A stretch of DNA of 64,000 bases from Escherichia phage phiEC1: sequence record KY608965.1; one strand, given 5' to 3'. Shown here one piece after another: positions 34,893-55,176 of the stretch (position 1 is the stretch's first letter; the number at the start of each line of letters is the position of its first letter). Made by a program: the position numbers and the translations under genes. The notes beneath the pieces were generated by a model. It saw nothing but the letters and a program-made list of their open reading frames with translations. It had not been told where the DNA came from and did no database searches.

Positions 34893-34900
34893 TATAAATA
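34893..34900 (+). promoter_or_regulatory. T4-type late promoter TATAAATA for gene 9
   Basis: TATAAATA 33 nt upstream of the gene 9 ATG. Confidence 0.55.
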
Positions 34901-34932
34901 GAATATAATATCGGACAACAAAAGGCAGAATT

Positions 34933-35805
34933 ATGGCATTTTTTAAGCAAACTCCTAAACAATTAATCGATACCGGCGAAATTGGTAATGCCTCAACAGG
35001 TGATATCTTATTCGACGGTGGTAATAAAATAAATGACGATATCAACGCTATTTACAATGCATTTGGCGATCAACGTAAAATGGCCGTAGCAGATGGAACC
35101 GGACCTACAGGTCAAACTATTCATGCCACAGGTTATTATCAAAAAGGAAAGGCAGCTGATTATCAAACTCCTATTAAACCAGGCACTATGCATGATATTG
35201 ATGCTTCTGATGGTGGTGTGATTGTTATTATTGACCGTCCTGAATTAGGTGACTCTGTAGAATTCATAAACTCTAATGGGTCTATTTCTGTTAACAATCC
35301 TTTAAGTATCCAAGTAACCGATGGTTCGATTAAAGGTGTTCTTAATAATCTTGTTATTTCCACACCTTATACCCATGTTGTTCTTCGTTGTGTTGAAATT
35401 AATGGGCCGACTTCAGTATGGAATTATTCTACTGATAGCATGTTTGGACAGAAAGAATCTCCTGTTGATGGGACTTGGAGTCTTACAGGAAACACAGTTT
35501 CTATTCCTCTGTTTTATCGCACGGATTATAACATGGCTAAATTGCTTGTTACATGTCAATCCGCTGATGGTAGAAAAATAAAAACATGCGAAATAAATAT
35601 TCTAATAGATACAATTAACTCAGAAGTTCTTTCTACCGAATTTGCAGTAATGCGAGTTGGTAATGTAGATGAAACCGACGAGATTGCTAATATTAGCTTT
35701 AGTATTATTAACAACTTTGCTACTATGACGATTACATCCGATATTATTGGATTACGTTCAGCAGTTAAAATTATCTCAACTCAGAAAATTGGGGTCGCTC
35801 AATAA
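34933..35805 (+). CDS. 9: Baseplate wedge / long tail fiber attachment protein gp9
   Basis: 290 aa; colinear with T4 gene 9. Confidence 0.8.
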   Translation: MAFFKQTPKQLIDTGEIGNASTGDILFDGGNKINDDINAIYNAFGDQRKMAVADGTGPTGQTIHATGYYQKGKAADYQTPIKPGTMHDIDASDGGVIVIIDRPELGDSVEFINSNGSISVNNPLSIQVTDGSIKGVLNNLVISTPYTHVVLRCVEINGPTSVWNYSTDSMFGQKESPVDGTWSLTGNTVSIPLFYRTDYNMAKLLVTCQSADGRKIKTCEINILIDTINSEVLSTEFAVMRVGNVDETDEIANISFSIINNFATMTITSDIIGLRSAVKIISTQKIGVAQ

Positions 35806-37610
35806 TGAAACAAAATATTAAAATTGGTAACGTCGTTGATGACGGACAAGGCGATTACCTTCGTCGAGGTGGTGAAAAGATAAATGAGAACTTTGACGAA
35901 ATCTATTATGAATTAGGTGATGGTGAAGTTCCTTATGCCGCTGGTGCATGGAAGACTTATGATGCGGCTGATGGTCTTAATCTTAAGGCTGCTTGGGGTA
36001 AATCTTATGCAATTAATACTACTTCTGGGCGAGTTTCGGTAAATCTTCCTAAAGGGACAATTGCAGACTATAATAAAGTTATTCGTGCTCGTGACGTATT
36101 TGCAACTTGGAACATTAACCCTGTTACTTTAATTCCGGCAAACGGAGACACGATTAAAGGTTCTTCATCTCCAGTAGAAATTAACGTTCAGTTCTCTGAT
36201 TTAGAATTAGTTTATTGTGCTCCTGGACGTTGGGAATACATCAAGAACAAACAAATTGATAAAATAGTTAGCTCTGACATTAGTAACGTTGCTCGTAGAG
36301 AATATCTGGTTGAAACCCAAGGTCAGACCGATTTCATGGATGTTTTTAACGGGACCTCTTATAACGTTAACAACATTCGCGTAAAACATCGTGGCAACGA
36401 ATTGTATTATGGTGATGTATTCAGTGATAATAGTGATTTTGGTTCCCCAGGCGCTAATCCTGGTGAACTGGTTGCACTTGATGGATTTAATATTAGATTA
36501 CGCCAACCATGTAATGTTGGGGACACTGTACAAATTGAGACATTCCTAGATGGTGTTTCTCAGTGGCGTAGTTCATATACTCGTCGCCAAGTTCGCATTT
36601 TAGATAGTAAATTGACTGCTAAAAAGTCTATTGATGGAAGTATTTACGTCACTGATTTGAGTACGTTCCGATCTATTCCATTTACAGCATTTGGTATTAA
36701 TCCTACAGAACCACCTAACCCGAATTCGTTAGAAGTTCGCTTCAATGGTATTCTCCAAGAATTAGCTGGTACTGTTGGAACTCCTATTTTCCGTTGTGAA
36801 GGTGTGGATGCTGATTCTGAAGAGTCATGCGCTAATCTCGGTGGGACATGGACTCAATCATATACAGATTATGCGATTGAATATACTGATAATATCCCTA
36901 GCGCAATTCTGTTTGACCGTCAATTTGAAGACCAGGACATTATTACCATCACATGGTTTAATAACGATTTAGGAACTCTTCTTGAAATGGAAGAAATCCT
37001 TGATGTCGCTGATGAGAAATATGTTTCTCAAGGGTCTAACATTGAAATTACCGGTGACGTTGCATTAACCGATTTCGATAAAATTGGATGGCCTAATGTA
37101 GAACCTGTTCCTAAGTACGAACGTGAATTCTCGACTATCTCAGCAATATTTGATACAATTTATCCTGTCGGGACTATTTACGAAAATGCGGTTAACCCTA
37201 ATAATCCGGCCACTTATTTAGGTTTTGGTTCGTGGAAAATTTGGGGACAAGGCAAAGTATTAGCAGGTTGGAATGATGACGCGTCGGATCCTAATTTTGC
37301 ATTAAATAATAATGACCTTGACATCAACGGTAACCCTACTCATACCGCAGGTGGTACTGTTGGTGTAACAACTATCACATTAGAAAATGCCGATTTACCA
37401 GCTACACAAACAGATGAAAAGGTTCTTATTTCTGATGATAATGGTACGGTAATTATAGGCGGTTGCCAATATGACCCAGATGCAGAAGGTCCTATTTACA
37501 CTAAATATCGTGAAGACCATGCAAAGACTAACGGATCTCATGTTCCAGCGCGTTCTATAACTAATATTCAGCCATCTATAACTGTATACCGTTGGGTAAG
37601 GATTGCATAA
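35805..37610 (+). CDS. 10: Baseplate wedge / short tail fiber attachment protein gp10
   Basis: 601 aa; colinear with T4 gene 10. Confidence 0.85.
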
Positions 37611-38269
37611 TGACTGTACTTAATACAAAGGCGGGAGTTATTTCCCGTCATGCTGATTTTTTGAATTACAGAAAAAATCCAGCTCAAATTGATGTTTTAA
37701 ACAACCAAGCTGTAGGTTCCGTGACTATTTCTCAGTTAGCTCGTGGTTTTTATGATGCTAACGTAGAATCTGCAATAAATGATGTCCATAATATGGCACG
37801 AGCTGATATTGGTACTGTTGTAACAAACACTTCAGGCATATCGCCTGAAGGTACAGCACAAGTTGATTATTGGACTTTTTCTGGTGATGTTCTCGACGAT
37901 ACTTTGGCCCCTGGAACGCCGGTCGTTATTAACGTATTTGGACTTGCTGTTAAAGCAACAATTGGTATGACTGATAACGAATTAACTGCACAAGTTCGTA
38001 TAGCTTTACAAGAAGCCATTGCTAATCAAATCGCTATTTCTTCTTATAAAGACCATCCATCCGAAGGTAATAAACTTCAGGTGACATATTTAGATAACCA
38101 ACGTCATGTGTTGCCAACATATGCTTCGTTTGGTGTAACAATTTCGCAAGAAATTTTGTCTGAAGCAAAATCCGGATACGGAACATGGAATTTATTGGGT
38201 GCCCAAACGGTTACTCTTGATAACCATGATACTCCTACCGTTTTCTACCACTTTGTGAGAGCCTCATGA
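37610..38269 (+). CDS. 11: Baseplate wedge protein gp11
   Basis: Start at ATG 37610 overlapping gene 10 stop (TAATG); 219 aa as T4 gp11. Confidence 0.8.
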
Positions 38270-39849
38270 GTAATAACAATACATACCAACACGTTTCAAA
38301 CGAATCCATTTACGTTGAATTCGACCCTACGGGGACGAATTTTCCAGATACAGTCACTAATGTCCAAGCCGCATTAGCTGCTATTTCTCCTTCAGGTGTT
38401 AATGGTGTACCGGAAGCAACAACTACTACACCAGGAATTATTCAAATAGCTACTCCACAAGAAGTTATTGATGGATTAGATAATAATAAAGCTGTTACTC
38501 CAGCATCACTGAATGCTCGTCTACAATATCCTAATGCAACCGAAACTCAATATGGCTTAACTCGTTATGCTACTGAAGATGAAGCAGTAACCGGAACTAT
38601 TGACGATGCATCAATTACTCCGCTTAAATTGAATCAAAAAATAGACAATGTATTTCAGACAAAAGTGTCAACAGAAGCAACAAATGGTGTAATTAAAATT
38701 TCAACTTCTGCTGCCGCATTAGCTGGTTCTGATGATACAACGGCAATGACTCCGTTAAAAACGCAACAATTAGCAATTAAACTTATTTCACAAATTGCTC
38801 CAAATAATAGTGACGCCACCGAATCTATTACAGGTGTTGTTCGTTTGGCTACAGTTGCTCAAGCACAACAAGGCACCCTGCGTGAAGGCTATGCAATTTC
38901 GCCTTATACCTTTATGAATTCAGTAGCATCAGAAACTAATAAAGGCGTCGTTAAACTAGGGACACAGACTGAAGTAAATAGTAACAACTCTTCAGTTGTA
39001 GTGACCGGCGCAACATTAAACGGGCGTGGGGCTACAACTTCTTTACGTGGAGTTGTTCGTTTAACTACACAAGCGGGTAGCCAATCAGGTGGTGATGGTT
39101 CTTCTGCTCTTGCTTGGAATGCTGATGTTATCCACCAACGAGGCGGACAAACTATTAATGGCACACTTCGCATTAATAATACGTTGACGGTTGGTTCTGG
39201 CGGCGCTAATATAACTGGTAATGTCAATATGACAGGTGGTTATATTCAAGGCAATCGTATTGTGACTCAAAATGAATTAGACCGAATTCTTCCAGTTGGC
39301 GCTATTACAATGTGGGCTGCAGATAGTTTACCGAGTTCCGACTGGCGCTTCTGTCACGGTGGGACTGTTTCTGCTTCAGAATGTCCAGTATATGCTTCCA
39401 GAATTGGGACACGATATGGTGGTAGTTCTTCTAACCCAGGCTTGCCTGATATGCGTGGATTATTTGTTCGTGGCTCAGGTCGTGGCTCTCACTTAACAAA
39501 TCCAAATGTTAATGGTAATGACCAGTTTGGTAAGCCTAGATTAGGTGTAGGTTGTACTGGTGGATATGTTGGTGAAGTACAGAAACAACAGATGTCTTAT
39601 CATAAACACGCTGGCGGATTTGGTGAGCATGATGATTCTGGAGCATTCGGTAATACCCGTAGATCAAATTTTGTTGGTACACGTAAAGGACTTGACTGGG
39701 ATAACCGTTCATACTTCACCAATGACGGATATGAAATTGACCCGGCATCACAACGAAATTCCAAATATACATTAAATCGTCCTGAATTAATTGGAAATGA
39801 AACACGCCCATGGAACATTTCTTTAAACTATATCATTAAGGTAAAATAA
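38266..39849 (+). CDS. 12: Short tail fiber protein gp12
   Basis: 527 aa, same length as T4 gp12. Confidence 0.85.
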
Positions 39850-41297
39850 TGGCTGATATATCTCTGGTAGATTTACCATATGTTGACGGCCCGCCAGACG
39901 CGGGTCAGAGTCGTATTGAATGGATTAAAAACGATGAAGAAATAACAGGTGCCGACACAAAATACGGTTCTGAAGGTGTAATGAACCGTCCTATTGTTGA
40001 AGTTCAACGTAACGTAGAAGCGTTAGATGTTAATATTAAAACTATAGCATCTTCTTTGAATACGGCCAATGAAGATATCAAAGTTATTCAAGGTATTTTA
40101 GATGTTTCTGGGGATGTTGATGCTCTTGCACAGATAGGCCAGAACACCCAAGATATCGATGTCATTAAAGTCACAGTTCAAACTCATGCCAGTGAATTGA
40201 ATGATTTGAATGAACATATTGATGCGAATACTGATGATATTGGTGTTTATAATCAGGAAACAGATTCAGTTTATAGAACGGTTCGTAATGACCTGCTTTG
40301 GATTAAAAATGAATTAGGACAATATACTGGTCAAGATATTAATGGGGTTCCTACTCCAGGAAATGATAGCACTGGTATGAAACGCCGTATTATGACTAAT
40401 AGCTCCGTAATTGTTGACCACGGCGTTCGATTAACTGATTTAGAAACTAAATTTGCTGATTCTGACGTCGGCTCTTTAACTATTGAAGTCGAACGCTTAC
40501 GCGAAGAAATGGGACCTCGTACTTCTTTCACTACTCCAGTGTTTAGTCGTCTTTCCGGTATTGATTTAACCTTGTCGCGTCAAAATGCTGACTTGGACGG
40601 CATTAAACAGTCTATTGGATATCCTAATACGACTTCTATTATTACTACCACTAATGCAAATAGTTCAGCAATAAATGACATTAATCTTGAGCTCAATCAA
40701 TCAGGTGGTATTAAACCTCGTTTGACTACAGTAGAAACTGCCATTGGCGCTGATGATTTGCCTACTACAATCCAAGGTCGTATTAAACTCAATACTGATG
40801 CTATCGGAGCATTGAACACTGTTGTCGGCTCTGATTCTTCGTCAGGATTGCGTTTTAATGTGTCATGGTTAAATAACGTAGTTGGTGTTGACGCTTCAGG
40901 TGGGAAACCGGAACCAGCCGGCTCTTTGCTTTATCGTACTCGAGAGCTTGAAGGAACTATCAGTGGGATGAGTAATGACATTCAGAACATTCAAACTGAT
41001 GTTGGGACTACTACCACAGGAATTAAGGGTTCTGTAAACACATTAAATACTCTTATAAATGGCACCAACCCAAATGGTTCGACTGTTGAAGAACGCGGTA
41101 TATTGCCTACAGTTAAAAGTCATGATACGACAATTAATAGTTTAACTTCTAGAATTGCTACTCTTGAAACTGATTTGGCCGCTGCAGAAGCTGAAATCCA
41201 AACTCTTAAGGAAGCTGGATATATTGAAGATGCTCCTTCAGACGGTAAATTCTATGTTCGCAAAGATGGTGCATGGGTTGAACTTCCTACAGCTTAA
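39849..41297 (+). CDS. wac: Fibritin (whisker antigen control)
   Basis: 482 aa; N-terminus like T4 fibritin and C-terminal foldon GYIEDAPSDGKFYVRKDGAWVELP. Confidence 0.9.
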   Translation: MADISLVDLPYVDGPPDAGQSRIEWIKNDEEITGADTKYGSEGVMNRPIVEVQRNVEALDVNIKTIASSLNTANEDIKVIQGILDVSGDVDALAQIGQNTQDIDVIKVTVQTHASELNDLNEHIDANTDDIGVYNQETDSVYRTVRNDLLWIKNELGQYTGQDINGVPTPGNDSTGMKRRIMTNSSVIVDHGVRLTDLETKFADSDVGSLTIEVERLREEMGPRTSFTTPVFSRLSGIDLTLSRQNADLDGIKQSIGYPNTTSIITTTNANSSAINDINLELNQSGGIKPRLTTVETAIGADDLPTTIQGRIKLNTDAIGALNTVVGSDSSSGLRFNVSWLNNVVGVDASGGKPEPAGSLLYRTRELEGTISGMSNDIQNIQTDVGTTTTGIKGSVNTLNTLINGTNPNGSTVEERGILPTVKSHDTTINSLTSRIATLETDLAAAEAEIQTLKEAGYIEDAPSDGKFYVRKDGAWVELPTA

Positions 41298-41303
41298 TGA
41301 AAA

Positions 41304-41326
41304 GGGCCTTCGGGCCCTAAAGGATT
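41304..41326 (+). terminator. Hairpin / weak terminator after wac
   Basis: GGGCC-TTCG-GGCCC hairpin followed by TAAAGGATTT; T-run is weak. Confidence 0.35.
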
Positions 41327-41329
41327 TAT

Positions 41330-42256
41330 ATGTCAGGTTATAATGCACAAAACCCTAAAGAATTAAAGGACGTAATATTACGTCGTTTAGGCGCTCCTAT
41401 TGTAAATGTTGAATTAACTACAGACCAAATTTATGATTGTATTTCACGAGCGTTAGAACTTTATGGCGAATACCATTTTGACGGGTTGAATAAAGGTTTC
41501 CATGTATTTTTTGTTGATGACGAAGAAAAATACCGTCACGGCGTATTTGATATGCGTGGTTCTAACGTATTTGCTGTAACAAGAATTATAAGAACAAATG
41601 TTGGCTCTATTACTTCAATGGATGGTAATGCAACTTATCCATGGTTCACTGATTTCCTTTTAGGAATGGCAGGTGTTTCAGGTGGTATGGGTAGTAATTG
41701 TGGTAAATTCTACGGCCCTAACGCTTTTGGCGCTGATCTCGGGTATTATTCTCAATTAGTATCTTATATGGGTATGCTTCAAGATATGATTGCTCCTCTT
41801 CCAGATTTTTGGTTTAACTCTGCAAACGAGCAATTAAAAGTAATGGGTAACTTTAGACAAAAAGACGTCATTATCGTTGAATCGTATGTTCGCTCTTATA
41901 TCGAGACCCATAAGATGGTAGGAAATACAGTAGGGTATGGTCAGGTCGGTCCTCGTGATTCATGGTCTATTTCTGAACGTTATGACAACCCAGACCATAA
42001 TTTGGTCGGACGACGAGTCGGTGAAGATCCTGCAACCAAACAAGGCGCATATAACAACCGTTGGGTTAAAGATTATGCGACTGCATTAGCTAAAGAGCTT
42101 AATGGACAAATTCTTGCTAAACATCAAGGTATGATGTTACCTGGTGGTGTCACTGTTGACGGTGTTCGATTAATTGAAGAGGCTCGTTTAGAAAAAGAAG
42201 CTTTACGAGAAGAGTTATATTTACTGGACCCTCCTGCAGGTATTTTGGTAGGTTAA
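41330..42256 (+). CDS. 13: Neck protein gp13
   Basis: 308 aa; colinear with T4 gene 13. Confidence 0.8.
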
Positions 42257-42257
42257 T

Positions 42258-42893
42258 ATGGCGACATACTACAGATTGTATATTACAACATTTGAAACAT
42301 CCACTGGTATAAAGATTTATGGTGGTAAACACAAATCAGTTTACGAAGACCCTTCAAAAGACCCTTATACTGGGTCTGGTACCTTTATACGAAGGGCCAA
42401 AAGAAAATACGGTCCGTCTTGTATAAAAGAAATTATATGGTCTAAGCCATTTGAATCTAAAGCTCTAATGGATGAAGCTGAAGAGTTACTGGTAGATGAA
42501 TTATCCATTTTAGAAAATTGCGCAAATCTTGTTAAAGGTGGTGCAGGCGGAAGGTCGTATATTAACCCAGAAGATAATCCATCTATAGGACAAAAACGTT
42601 CAGCCCAATCTAAAAAGAAAATGTCTGACGCCGCAAAATCAAGAAAATGGACTGAAGAAGGGTTAAGAAAACGTAAAGAATCTACAGCAAGAATGTGGAA
42701 AGATTTCAAACATAGACATCCTGATTTTTCTGGTTCAAAAAATCCAGCAGCTCGAAAAGTTAGTGTAAATGGTAAAATATTTAACACCTGCAAAGAATGT
42801 GGTGAAGAATTTAATATCACATCAAGCGCGGTTATAGGCCGATGCAAAAACAACAAACCTAAATGGGCAGGATGGAATTATGTCGACGTATAA
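42258..42893 (+). CDS. GIY-YIG homing endonuclease (Seg / I-TevI-like)
   Basis: 211 aa; N-terminal YRLYI-(x12)-KIYGG GIY-YIG-like motif; basic linker; C-terminal [39 protein letters not shown] resembles the I-TevI DNA-binding tail. Confidence 0.75.
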
Positions 42894-43644
42894 TTCAAAT
42901 TTATTTGCAAAGTTAGAAACCCGAGAAGGCTATTCTAAAACTAATGAAACCGAGATTTTAAACAAATACGTGAACTTCAACAAATACGAAAATAGTCAAA
43001 CCCTAGCTGATGTGTTAGTAGCAGAAAGCATACAGATGCGCGGTATTGAGTGTTTTTATGTTCCACGTGAATATGTTGCCGTGGACCTTATCTTTGGTGA
43101 GGACCTTAAAAATAAATTTACTAAAGCATGGAAATTTGCTGCATATCTGAACTCTTTTGAAGGTTATGAAGGAGCGAAATCGTTCTTCAGCAACTTCGGA
43201 ATGCAAGTTCAAGACGAAGTTACATTATCTATTAACCCAGGTCTTTTCAAACACCAGGTCAACAATCAGGAGCCCAAGGAAGGTGATTTAATATACTTCC
43301 CAATGGACAACAGTTTGTTTGAGATTAACTGGGTTGAACCATATGACCCATTCTATCAAGTAGGTAAAAATGCGATTCGTAAAATTACTGCAGGCAAGTT
43401 TATTTACTCTGGCGAAGAAATCAATCCGGTGCTTCAGAAAAACGAAGGTATCAATATACCTGAATTTAGTGACTTGGAACTTAACCCTGTTAGAAATCTT
43501 GACGGTATCCATGACATTAATATCGATGAATATTCTGAAGTTGAGCAAATCAATTCAGAGGCAAGTGAATACGTTGAGCCGTATGTAGTAGTTAACAACC
43601 GTGGTAGACAAAATTCACCATTTGACGATGGGTTTATGAATTAA
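42880..43644 (+). CDS. 14: Neck protein gp14
   Basis: 254 aa; start lies within the last 14 nt of the endonuclease ORF. Confidence 0.8.
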
Positions 43645-43693
43645 TAAATAGATAAGATAAAGCAAACACCGGTCGAAAGGCCGGTTAGGAGAA

Positions 43694-44518
43694 ATGATGT
43701 TTGGTTATTTTTACAACTCGTCGTTCAGGCGATATATCACAATGATGGGCGATTTGTTTTCAAATATCCAAGTTAACCGTCAATTGTCTACAGGCAATAA
43801 ATTAATTAGAGTTCCTATTACGTATGCATCTAAAGAGCACTTTATGATGAAACTTAATAAATGGACCTCTATAAACTCACAAGAAGATGTGGCTAAAGTC
43901 GAAACTATTCTACCACGTATAAATCTCCAAATGGTAGATTTCGTTTATAACCCAACGTTTAAAACGAATATATTGAATAACTCTCTTTTGAGTAAATCGA
44001 CTAAGGATATTGTAGACCAATACAACCCATCACCAATTAAAATGATTTTTGAACTGAGCATCTTTACTCGTTATGAAGATGATATGTTCCAAATCGTTGA
44101 GCAAATTATTCCATATTTTCAGCCGCATTTTAATACGACTATGATTGAGCAATATGGGCAGGATATTCCATTTGAAAGGGATATTAAAGTCGTATGGATG
44201 GCAGCAGCAATGGATGAACAAATAGACGGTGATAATTTATCCCGTCGACGTTTAGAGTGGTCATTAACATTTGAAGTAAATGGATGGATGTATCCTCCGG
44301 TAGGCGCAGCTGAAGGCCTTATTAAAACGACTTATCTTGATTTTCATGCTAATGAACGAGACCTTCAAACAGCCGCCAGCGTTTTTGAATCAGTTGATAC
44401 AGAAATTAAACCGAGAGACGTTGAAGCACAAGATTGGAATGGTGAAGTTGAACAAACTTATACTCATGATATTCCAATCCCGACTCCACCAACCCCTCCT
44501 GGTCCTAGAAAACAATAA
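43694..44518 (+). CDS. 15: Tail sheath stabilizer / completion protein gp15
   Basis: about 272-274 aa; colinear with T4 gene 15. Confidence 0.8.
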   Translation: MMFGYFYNSSFRRYITMMGDLFSNIQVNRQLSTGNKLIRVPITYASKEHFMMKLNKWTSINSQEDVAKVETILPRINLQMVDFVYNPTFKTNILNNSLLSKSTKDIVDQYNPSPIKMIFELSIFTRYEDDMFQIVEQIIPYFQPHFNTTMIEQYGQDIPFERDIKVVWMAAAMDEQIDGDNLSRRRLEWSLTFEVNGWMYPPVGAAEGLIKTTYLDFHANERDLQTAASVFESVDTEIKPRDVEAQDWNGEVEQTYTHDIPIPTPPTPPGPRKQ

Positions 44519-46841
<2,323 letters not shown>

Positions 46842-54878: not shown

Positions 54879-54910
54879 GGGAGACTTCGGTCTCCCATTT
54901 TTGGTTTTAT
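54879..54910 (+). terminator. Rho-independent terminator after gene 23
   Basis: GGGAGAC-TTCG-GTCTCCC hairpin followed by ATTTTTGGTTTT. Confidence 0.7.
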
Positions 54911-55176
54911 TTCTGTGCAATTTCGATGTAAGTTTTCAAAATATTTTGCCAATTAGGCATACCTTCTTGGACATATGCCGGAGAACCGTCTTTGTTTTTG
55001 AATGATGCAAGTTTATCAGTGGCCCAATAACCTTTAGCTCGAGCTTCAGAATCAACTTTCATCCATACTTTGTTGAAGGCATTACCATTAACTTTTGCAC
55101 CATATTTTTCTACTAACTTAACTGCTTCAGCTTCCAGAACTTTTAAAGTATCTCGTAAGAAACGTGCTTTAGTCAT
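54907..55176 (-). CDS. Small hypothetical protein, antisense-oriented in the 23-24 intergenic region
   Basis: 89 aa; occupies the position where T4 carries segD but shows no endonuclease motif; own early-type promoter cassette upstream. Confidence 0.45.
   Translation of the reverse strand: MTKARFLRDTLKVLEAEAVKLVEKYGAKVNGNAFNKVWMKVDSEARAKGYWATDKLASFKNKDGSPAYVQEGMPNWQNILKTYIEIAQK

Follow-up and report, generated by a model that had tools for sequence, protein, structure and literature searches.

What is a complete 211-codon ORF doing between genes 13 and 14, two core neck genes in an essential late operon of a T-even phage, and by what route did it come to lie there? The ORF is found in a 64,000-nucleotide stretch of Escherichia phage phiEC1 (KY608965.1), here called the window, and an earlier note made from the sequence alone read it as a free-standing GIY-YIG homing endonuclease, wedged between the two genes at a new insertion site. 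We compared the ORF, referred to below as HEG, and its surroundings with related phage genomes and with known homing endonucleases.

Position and domains of the ORF

According to the ORF list and the sequence of the window, HEG occupies 42258..42893 on the plus strand, begins with ATG and encodes 211 aa. Its packing is as tight as the earlier note had described: gene 13 (41330..42256, plus strand; neck/head-tail adaptor, 308 aa, with a Pfam Phage_T4_gp13 match on identical neighbours) stops at TAA, a single T follows and the HEG ATG comes next, and gene 14 (42880..43644, plus strand; neck/head closure, 254 aa, present as a HEG-linked allele) starts at 42880 and overlaps the last 14 nt of HEG. 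T4, as the same note stated, has no insert there; its gp13 and gp14 are 1 nt apart. The note was also right that seg ORFs are missing from the window where T4 has segD (23/24; here a 422-nt gap holding only an unrelated 89-aa ORF) and segE (inh/uvsW; here a gap of 50 nt); the segC position (5.1/5.4) of the window has no seg ORF either. The 89-aa ORF of the 23/24 gap (54907-55176, minus strand) was rejected as a seg gene, being not seg-like in the family search; it has a weak, sub-threshold match to Pfam DUF4859 (E 0.003). An antisense 163-aa ORF at 42365..42856 has no family match, is not seg-like and was taken as spurious. The flanking genes of the window are 95-99% identical to those of ~140 deposited phages, none of the matched records being identical to the window, and the window phage is assigned to the RB69-like T-even group (Mosigvirus).

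Both elements of the GIY-YIG-like N-terminus noticed earlier are present, YRLYI at residues 5-9 and KIYGG at residues 19-23, and profile-profile comparison supports a protein of the Seg/I-TevI type. The profile search proposed as a check on the fold gave a divided result, in that Pfam PF01541 misses HEG, whereas hhalign with an I-TevI/Seg profile recovers it. Specifically, comparison of the HEG family profile with a reference profile built from I-TevI, T4 SegC, SegD and SegE, Phi1 SegC and an Acinetobacter-phage Seg homologue yielded a probability of 99.5% (E 8e-23) over 194 columns, covering both halves of the protein. The Pfam GIY-YIG models PF01541 and PF19835 (SegE_GIY-YIG) do not match the whole of HEG at E<=10, nor HEG residues 1-101 or six homologues at 53-63% identity at E<=1. 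T4 SegC, SegD and SegE themselves pass narrowly on PF19835 and fall below the cut-off on PF01541. Given the hhalign result, we regard the Pfam miss as a limit of sensitivity and not as evidence of non-membership. In PHROGs, HEG falls into the 'homing endonuclease' family PHROG_314 (E 2.6e-37); pairwise blastp against T4 gave 33% identity to SegC (E 9e-16), 32% to SegD and 34% to SegE, and tblastn in a 2.3-Gb phage collection matched T4 SegC at E 4e-9. A phmmer search of the PDB sequences was discarded, since it returned noise only, plus a weak match to the I-TevI DNA-binding domain. Taken together, HEG encodes a Seg/I-TevI-type GIY-YIG endonuclease of a divergent subfamily, and the escape of this subfamily from the Pfam GIY-YIG models is a new, if modest, observation.

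The putative catalytic domain comprises residues 1-98 (42258..42551, plus strand) and is arranged beta-beta-alpha-beta-alpha, an order reproduced with a pLDDT of ~90 over residues 1-92 in an AlphaFold2 model built on 12 homologues. Its alpha/beta core, a three-stranded sheet flanked by helices, matches solved GIY-YIG domains. The candidate catalytic residues Tyr8 (of RLY; 42279-81), Tyr21-Gly22-Gly23 (YGG; 42318-26), Glu75 (42480-82) and Asn90 (42525-27), all on the plus strand, align with I-TevI Y6, Y17-V18-G19, E75 and N90, and Y8, Y21/G23, E75 and N90 are invariant among the 12 homologues aligned. The I-TevI helix that carries Arg27 is absent from HEG, as it is from T4 SegC, SegD and SegE; alignment offers K24, R45/R46 and K50 as candidates but singles out none of them, and an Arg27 equivalent is not identifiable in the active T4 SegC and SegE either. 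Directly after YGG, residues 24-27 (42327-42338) read KHKS in the window protein and in its carriers at >=99% identity, and KRHS in 11/11 homologues at 53-63% identity. The KHKS of the window protein matches the G-K-H-S/T spacing of T4 SegE.

The catalytic domain is followed by a basic helical linker (residues ~105-150; 42570..42707, plus strand) that resembles NUMOD3 weakly, at a sub-threshold E of 0.006 in Pfam, and has helices at 116-128 and 133-149 in the AlphaFold2 model. A linker zinc finger was rejected because the linker has no conserved cysteines: there is no conserved Cys/His cluster, C55, C88 and C181 being the only invariant cysteines, and a zf_Tbcl match (E 0.16) was noise. The remaining part, an I-TevI-type helix-turn-helix DNA-binding domain (residues ~157-207; 42726..42878, plus strand) that ends in KWxGWNY, bears out the resemblance of the tail to I-TevI and Seg proteins suggested before. 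The HEG family profile aligned residues 145-206 with I-TevI 1i3j_A at E 2.7e-5, and Foldseek matched the same structure with a probability of 1.00, the full-length model matching the DNA-binding domain only. Pfam PF20987 reached the HEG C-terminus at E 1e-4 and 22.6 bits, below its 27-bit cut-off. This helix-turn-helix subdomain is homologous to I-TevI residues ~184-245.

Filled and empty sites among T-even phages

The 13-14 region was matched by 205 phage records, 12 of which hold the insert at 98.0-98.8% identity; these records represent 11 phages, F2 having been deposited twice. Measured against the 139 records with 95-99% identical flanks, HEG is thus present in 12 (~9%, about one in twelve), and the other records of this band match in two pieces that meet at a clean junction, 622 bp shorter. 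An uninterrupted 13/14 junction is found in ~724 T-even records. Since HEG is absent from T4 and from ~90% of close relatives, empty-site alleles exist, and the comparison across T-even genomes that the earlier note proposed therefore sustains its reading of an insert that some relatives lack. Furthermore, MATYDKNLF, the native start known from T4, is retained at the empty sites, which therefore represent the ancestral state. HEG is free-standing: it lies outside any intron or intein, in or between conserved genes, and occurs sporadically among close relatives.

At loci 4-16 kb away, the carriers moskry, mogra and NicPhage are interleaved with non-carriers, and in gene 13 the HEG-positive and HEG-negative phages are intermixed, with 0.9-3.7% divergence in all comparisons. 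Nor does the remainder of gene 14 (0.4-4.9%) separate them: there the window differs by 0.4% from NicPhage, which has HEG, and by 0.8% from NRG-P0074 and KAW3E185, which do not. Two values, the gp12/wac distance of SQ17 and the downstream distance of NicPhage, were ignored as indel artefacts of the ungapped comparison. HEG itself differs among carriers by only 0.3-0.6%, less than the flanks, a range taken from an unbiased set, the alternative set being biased by 8 loci that had been retrieved by exact protein identity. That HEG is less diverse than its flanks points to a recent common origin across different genomic backgrounds. The pattern is compatible with biased inheritance of HEG in mixed infections, although low diversity within mosaic flanks could equally result from a single acquisition with normal recombination afterwards.

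The exact HEG protein is listed in 112 blocks of the index of public assemblies, and in all 8 of the contigs displayed (out of 23, metagenomic or genomic) it lies between gp13 and gp14. Records of 11 deposited phages label the identical protein a homing or GIY-YIG endonuclease. A scan of IMG/VR with the family alignment returned 3 loci only and added nothing. Several of the records call for comment. A Shigella flexneri 'hypothetical protein' on a 90-kb contig is identical to HEG and presumably represents phage DNA in a bacterial assembly. Phage F2 (MN864145 / NC_054913) is filed as 'Tequatrovirus efftwo', yet its region is 98.8% identical to mosigviruses, so that the label looks inconsistent. 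Near HEG, gene 15 of NicPhage is annotated as two CDSs (L014 5368-6316) and wac of a metagenomic carrier is called as two genes (L030 627-2040), in both cases likely owing to a frameshift or an assembly error.

RB69, the type phage of the lineage, was reported to be without homing endonucleases (Petrov et al. 2010, PMC2993671). Relatives of HEG at ~30% identity are annotated in mosigviruses and other T-evens by nrdD, by the helicase-loader gene and by the major head protein gene, and one in ESCO10 lies between gp5- and gp6-type baseplate genes. Because relatives are annotated at these other, classic homing endonuclease sites, mosigviruses as a group are not free of homing endonucleases, unlike what was reported for RB69.

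Anatomy of the insertion

Comparison of filled and empty sites shows how the cassette is joined to its neighbours. The first four codons of HEG, ATGGCGACATAC (MATY; 42258..42269, plus strand), match the native start of gene 14, which in empty-site phages and in T4 is ATGGCnACTTAT (MATY). In the empty-site mosigviruses and T4, gene 14 continues ATGGCnACTTAT GAT AAA AAT, encoding MATYDKNLF, whereas the HEG ORF continues MATY-YRLY. Because its first codons match this start, HEG would use the original translation start of gene 14 together with the ribosome-binding context of that start and its 1-nt coupling to the gene 13 stop. In T4-type hosts, the HEG ORF is thus fused to gene 14's own first four codons, and homologues in hosts whose gp14 is without a MATY start begin MQF.. 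or MHY.. and have their own Shine-Dalgarno sequence.

At its other end, HEG appears to return what it took. The conserved tail ..K-W-x-x-W-N-Y is encoded by ..AGGATGGAATTATG and holds a candidate new gene 14 start (42869..42882, plus strand), consisting of an SD-like AGGA (42869-72), a 7-nt spacer and an ATG (42880-82) that arises from AAT TAT G (..W-N-Y). An embedded gene 14 start is also present in RZ, phT4A, Kiwi_ER50 and Phi1, with GGAGG-like SDs. We infer that gene 14 is translated from the ATG at 42880 donated by HEG. This refines the earlier description, 'wedged between neck genes 13 and 14': with the original start taken over at one end and a replacement supplied at the other, the cassette is, as far as can be read from sequence, located within gene 14, inside its first codons, and not between two intact genes.

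The donated start is followed by a recoded block at the 5' end of gene 14 (42883..42927, plus strand). Nucleotides 4-48 of gene 14 carry 17 substitutions relative to empty-site alleles (MATYDKNLFAKLENRG), and the remaining 717 nt only 6. At >=95% identity, the block occurs in the 12 HEG-positive records and nowhere else (12/12), the next best match anywhere being 79%. Searches of the phage collection with a synthetic junction and with the recoded block alone detected no recoded gene 14 start without HEG, that is, no 'resistant empty' allele. The block probably marks the target site of the HEG endonuclease, so that the predicted target in HEG-free phages lies at this location, and it is predicted to be the basis of donor self-immunity. 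The resulting amino-acid changes in gp14 affect residues 2, 5, 6, 14 and 16. The published structure of the T4 neck shows an N-terminal loop at residues 5-37 of gp14, its model as described not extending to residues 1-4 (PMC12929587), and because the changes fall in these parts they are probably tolerated. One substitution in the otherwise invariant block is private to the window: at 42920, in codon 14 of gene 14, it reads ACC (Thr), against AAC (Asn) in 12 other carriers. New, though again modest, is the way in which one start is captured and another donated, which in combination with the linked 48-nt block yields a sharp target prediction.

The expression context fits an element that relies on its host operon. 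The canonical late promoter TATAAATA is absent from 34893 to 46837 (genes 9 to 17), the nearest approach to it in the cassette being the 1-mismatch TATAAAGA at 42308, and sigma-70-like sites at the cassette are at or below chance. In the whole window, the TATAAATA core occurs in 19 copies against 8.5 expected (0/100 shuffles reach 19), mostly just upstream of late genes. RNA hairpins that sequester the RBS are known for some T4 endonucleases; none was detected at the HEG or gene 14 start, where folding z-scores were ~0. Two GC-rich hairpins bracket the 13-HEG-14 unit: the palindromic AAGGGCCTTCGGGCCCT in the wac/13 spacer (41302..41318), annotated as a terminator in related records, and ACCGGTCGAAAGGCCGGT in the 14/15 spacer (43668..43685), annotated as a terminator in SA79RD. 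RB49 and Phi1 have different hairpins, in their 13/14 spacers (L024 2841-2876; L009 1435-1500). Since there is no TATAAATA between 34893 and 46837, a transcript carrying HEG is assumed, and with the late promoter absent and the sigma-70-like sites at chance, the cassette looks promoter-less and, by inference, translationally coupled, like T4 segC, segF and segG (PMC2988022).

The insertion site is not new, contrary to the earlier note, because the 13/14 position already holds seg genes in three further genera: Gaprivervirus (RZ, P8, TH40, pEC-M719-6WT.2, VR26 and the Shigella phage SP18, whose copy has the annotation 'segC'), Slopekvirus (phT4A, Kiwi_ER50 and Klebsiella phages) and Krischvirus (Phi1, phi1p149.1, annotated 'segC'). 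The Phi1 segC has been described as a gene absent from RB49 (Arbiol et al. 2010, PMC2839356). The window protein shares 56-60% identity with its counterparts in RZ, phT4A and Kiwi, whereas Phi1 SegC is only 29% identical to it and is nearer to T4 SegC (35%); the site has therefore been occupied by at least two diverged seg lineages. The HEG-linked diverged tract covers ~90 nt of gene 14 and the last 22 nt of gene 13 when RZ is compared with DK-13, and ~450 nt with 110 differences when Phi1 is compared with RB49, the last 291 nt showing only 2. In each of three genera, the tract starts at the HEG and extends one-sidedly into gene 14, as would be expected of co-conversion from a break in gene 14. 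The shortest linked tract is 48 nt, which bounds the likely target to that length. A related seg gene, in Acinetobacter phage phi1_092060 (L010 1501-2151), shows 35% identity over the N-terminal 140 residues and is situated at another neck/head-completion junction, between genes for a 'head closure protein' and a 'DNA end protector', with a 4-nt overlap with both neighbours.

At the predicted target (native gene 14 nt 1-26), a single position differs between T4 and the mosigvirus empty sites, which makes cutting and exclusion across genera conceivable. The suggestion that the 5' end of gene 14 may be a cross-genus hot spot, used by at least two seg lineages through the embedded-start trick, and that the enzyme could cut and exclude Tequatrovirus, is a tentative one.

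Proposed homing, its rivals and known systems

The reading we prefer, at a probability of roughly 0.75, is that HEG is an active endonuclease that would be made late, cut the gene 14 5' end of HEG-free phages and be copied in together with the recoded block, the donor being immune. The enzyme would have two domains, an N-terminal GIY-YIG nuclease and a C-terminal I-TevI-like helix-turn-helix joined by a basic linker, and would be produced late, from the 13-14 late transcript. During co-infection with a HEG-free relative, it would bind and cut the native gene 14 5' end, approximately within the first 50 bp. The break would then be mended by T-even recombination-dependent repair with the HEG-bearing genome as the template, and HEG would be copied into the recipient with the rewritten block, in a case of intronless homing with localised marker exclusion. 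The donor genome would be immune because the insertion divides its own site, which has in addition been recoded. Such homing has precedents in T4 SegF, SegG, SegE, SegB and SegC (Edgell et al. 2010, PMC2988022). In the literature, we found no study of the HEG gene and no cleavage, homing or exclusion experiment for it or a close homologue.

It is unlikely, in our assessment, that HEG is instead an inactive or decaying copy that no longer homes and persists because precise loss is rare, a deletion having also to restore the gene 14 start. Decay would fit the lack of a Pfam GIY-YIG match, the KHKS found at residues 24-27 where the family has KRHS, the embedding of the gene 14 start in HEG, which would make simple deletions lethal, and the occurrence of the gene in only ~9% of close relatives. 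However, the ORF is full-length and the Tyr/Tyr/Glu/Asn set is intact in every copy and in the 53-63% homologues, across four genera, and KHKS agrees with the G-K-H-S/T arrangement of T4 SegE. Moreover, the 0.3-0.6% diversity of HEG, below that of the flanks, indicates a recent common origin across backgrounds.

Quite improbable is a co-opted nuclease or DNA-binding protein that benefits the phage, with homing secondary. The roles proposed for it are the exclusion of rival T-evens, local recombination or amplification in the manner of SegB, and repression of transcription in the manner of I-TevI. I-TevI represses transcription at its own operator, and HEG does have an I-TevI-type DNA-binding domain; likewise, attack across genera is conceivable, with one differing target position between T4 and mosigviruses. 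One report credits SegB with promoting the amplification of anti-defence loci (PMC13096335). Nevertheless, the HEG locus has no cargo or defence-related neighbour, its flanks being core neck genes, and sporadic carriage (~9%) fits a selfish element and not a beneficial gene.

It is very improbable that the gene was present ancestrally and then lost repeatedly, or that recombination simply reassorted an old insertion without any spread driven by the endonuclease: T-evens recombine freely and a conserved insert can acquire mosaic flanks with no homing involved, but the empty sites of Mosigvirus and T4 share the native start and the 1-nt spacing, which marks them as ancestral and not as deletion scars, in three genera the foreign tract always extends out of the HEG and into gene 14, as co-conversion predicts, and the diversity of HEG is below that of its flanks.

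Databases, and in part the literature, already contain elements of this kind, of this architecture and even at this insertion site, and nothing here is conceptually new. What the locus adds is a further free-standing homing endonuclease for the T-even phages, in the lineage of RB69, and a natural experiment in which dozens of near-identical genomes with and without HEG fix the insertion to the base. The 48-nt recoded block is a precise, testable prediction of the recognition site, and the anatomy suggests how an essential late operon may host such an element at little cost, the start of the host gene being borrowed and a new one donated. Many of these phages, as isolates for phage therapy or biocontrol, go into cocktails, and a homing endonuclease in the neck genes could bias the outcome of recombination when related phages are mixed in them.

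Among known systems, T4 SegC is the nearest T4 protein, with 33% identity over 198 aligned positions (HEG residues 4-197). The two share a three-part architecture of GIY-YIG domain, NUMOD3-like linker and I-TevI-type HTH in proteins of 198 and 211 aa, and both appear to be encoded by promoter-less cassettes that lie in a late structural operon and overlap their neighbours (PMC2988022). T4 SegC differs in that it is located between genes 5.1 and 5.3, with another site and target, and in that it reaches the Pfam SegE_GIY-YIG cut-off and HEG does not, the YIG motif of HEG being YGG. I-TevI, encoded in the td intron of T4, is the protein whose structures match both domains best (1ln0 for the catalytic one, 1i3j and 1t2t for the DNA-binding one); it has the catalytic Tyr, Tyr, Glu75 and Asn90 in common with HEG, and likewise a C-terminal KWxW.Y tail. 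By contrast, I-TevI is intron-encoded and has a linker zinc finger and a helix alpha-1 with Arg27, whereas HEG is free-standing, has no conserved Cys cluster and is without that helix, in the last respect like T4 SegC, SegD and SegE.

The seg genes of Phi1 (SegC), SP18/RZ/VR26 and phT4A/Kiwi_ER50 have the same position as HEG, with the gene 14 ATG in the final W-N/Y-Y codons, and resemble it further in being polymorphic for presence or absence relative to close relatives (RB49, DK-13/TH41) and in having a linked tract. Phi1 SegC is unlike HEG in having its own 66-nt upstream spacer and SD and no captured start, and its tract is ~450 nt against 48 nt. For the mode of action proposed here, the closest models are T4 SegF and SegG, which cut a neighbouring essential gene of a HEG-free relative and, through co-conversion of the HEG and flanking polymorphisms, leave the donor resistant (PMC2988022; PMC2993671). 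Cleavage and exclusion have been demonstrated experimentally for SegF and SegG; for HEG, both are predictions.
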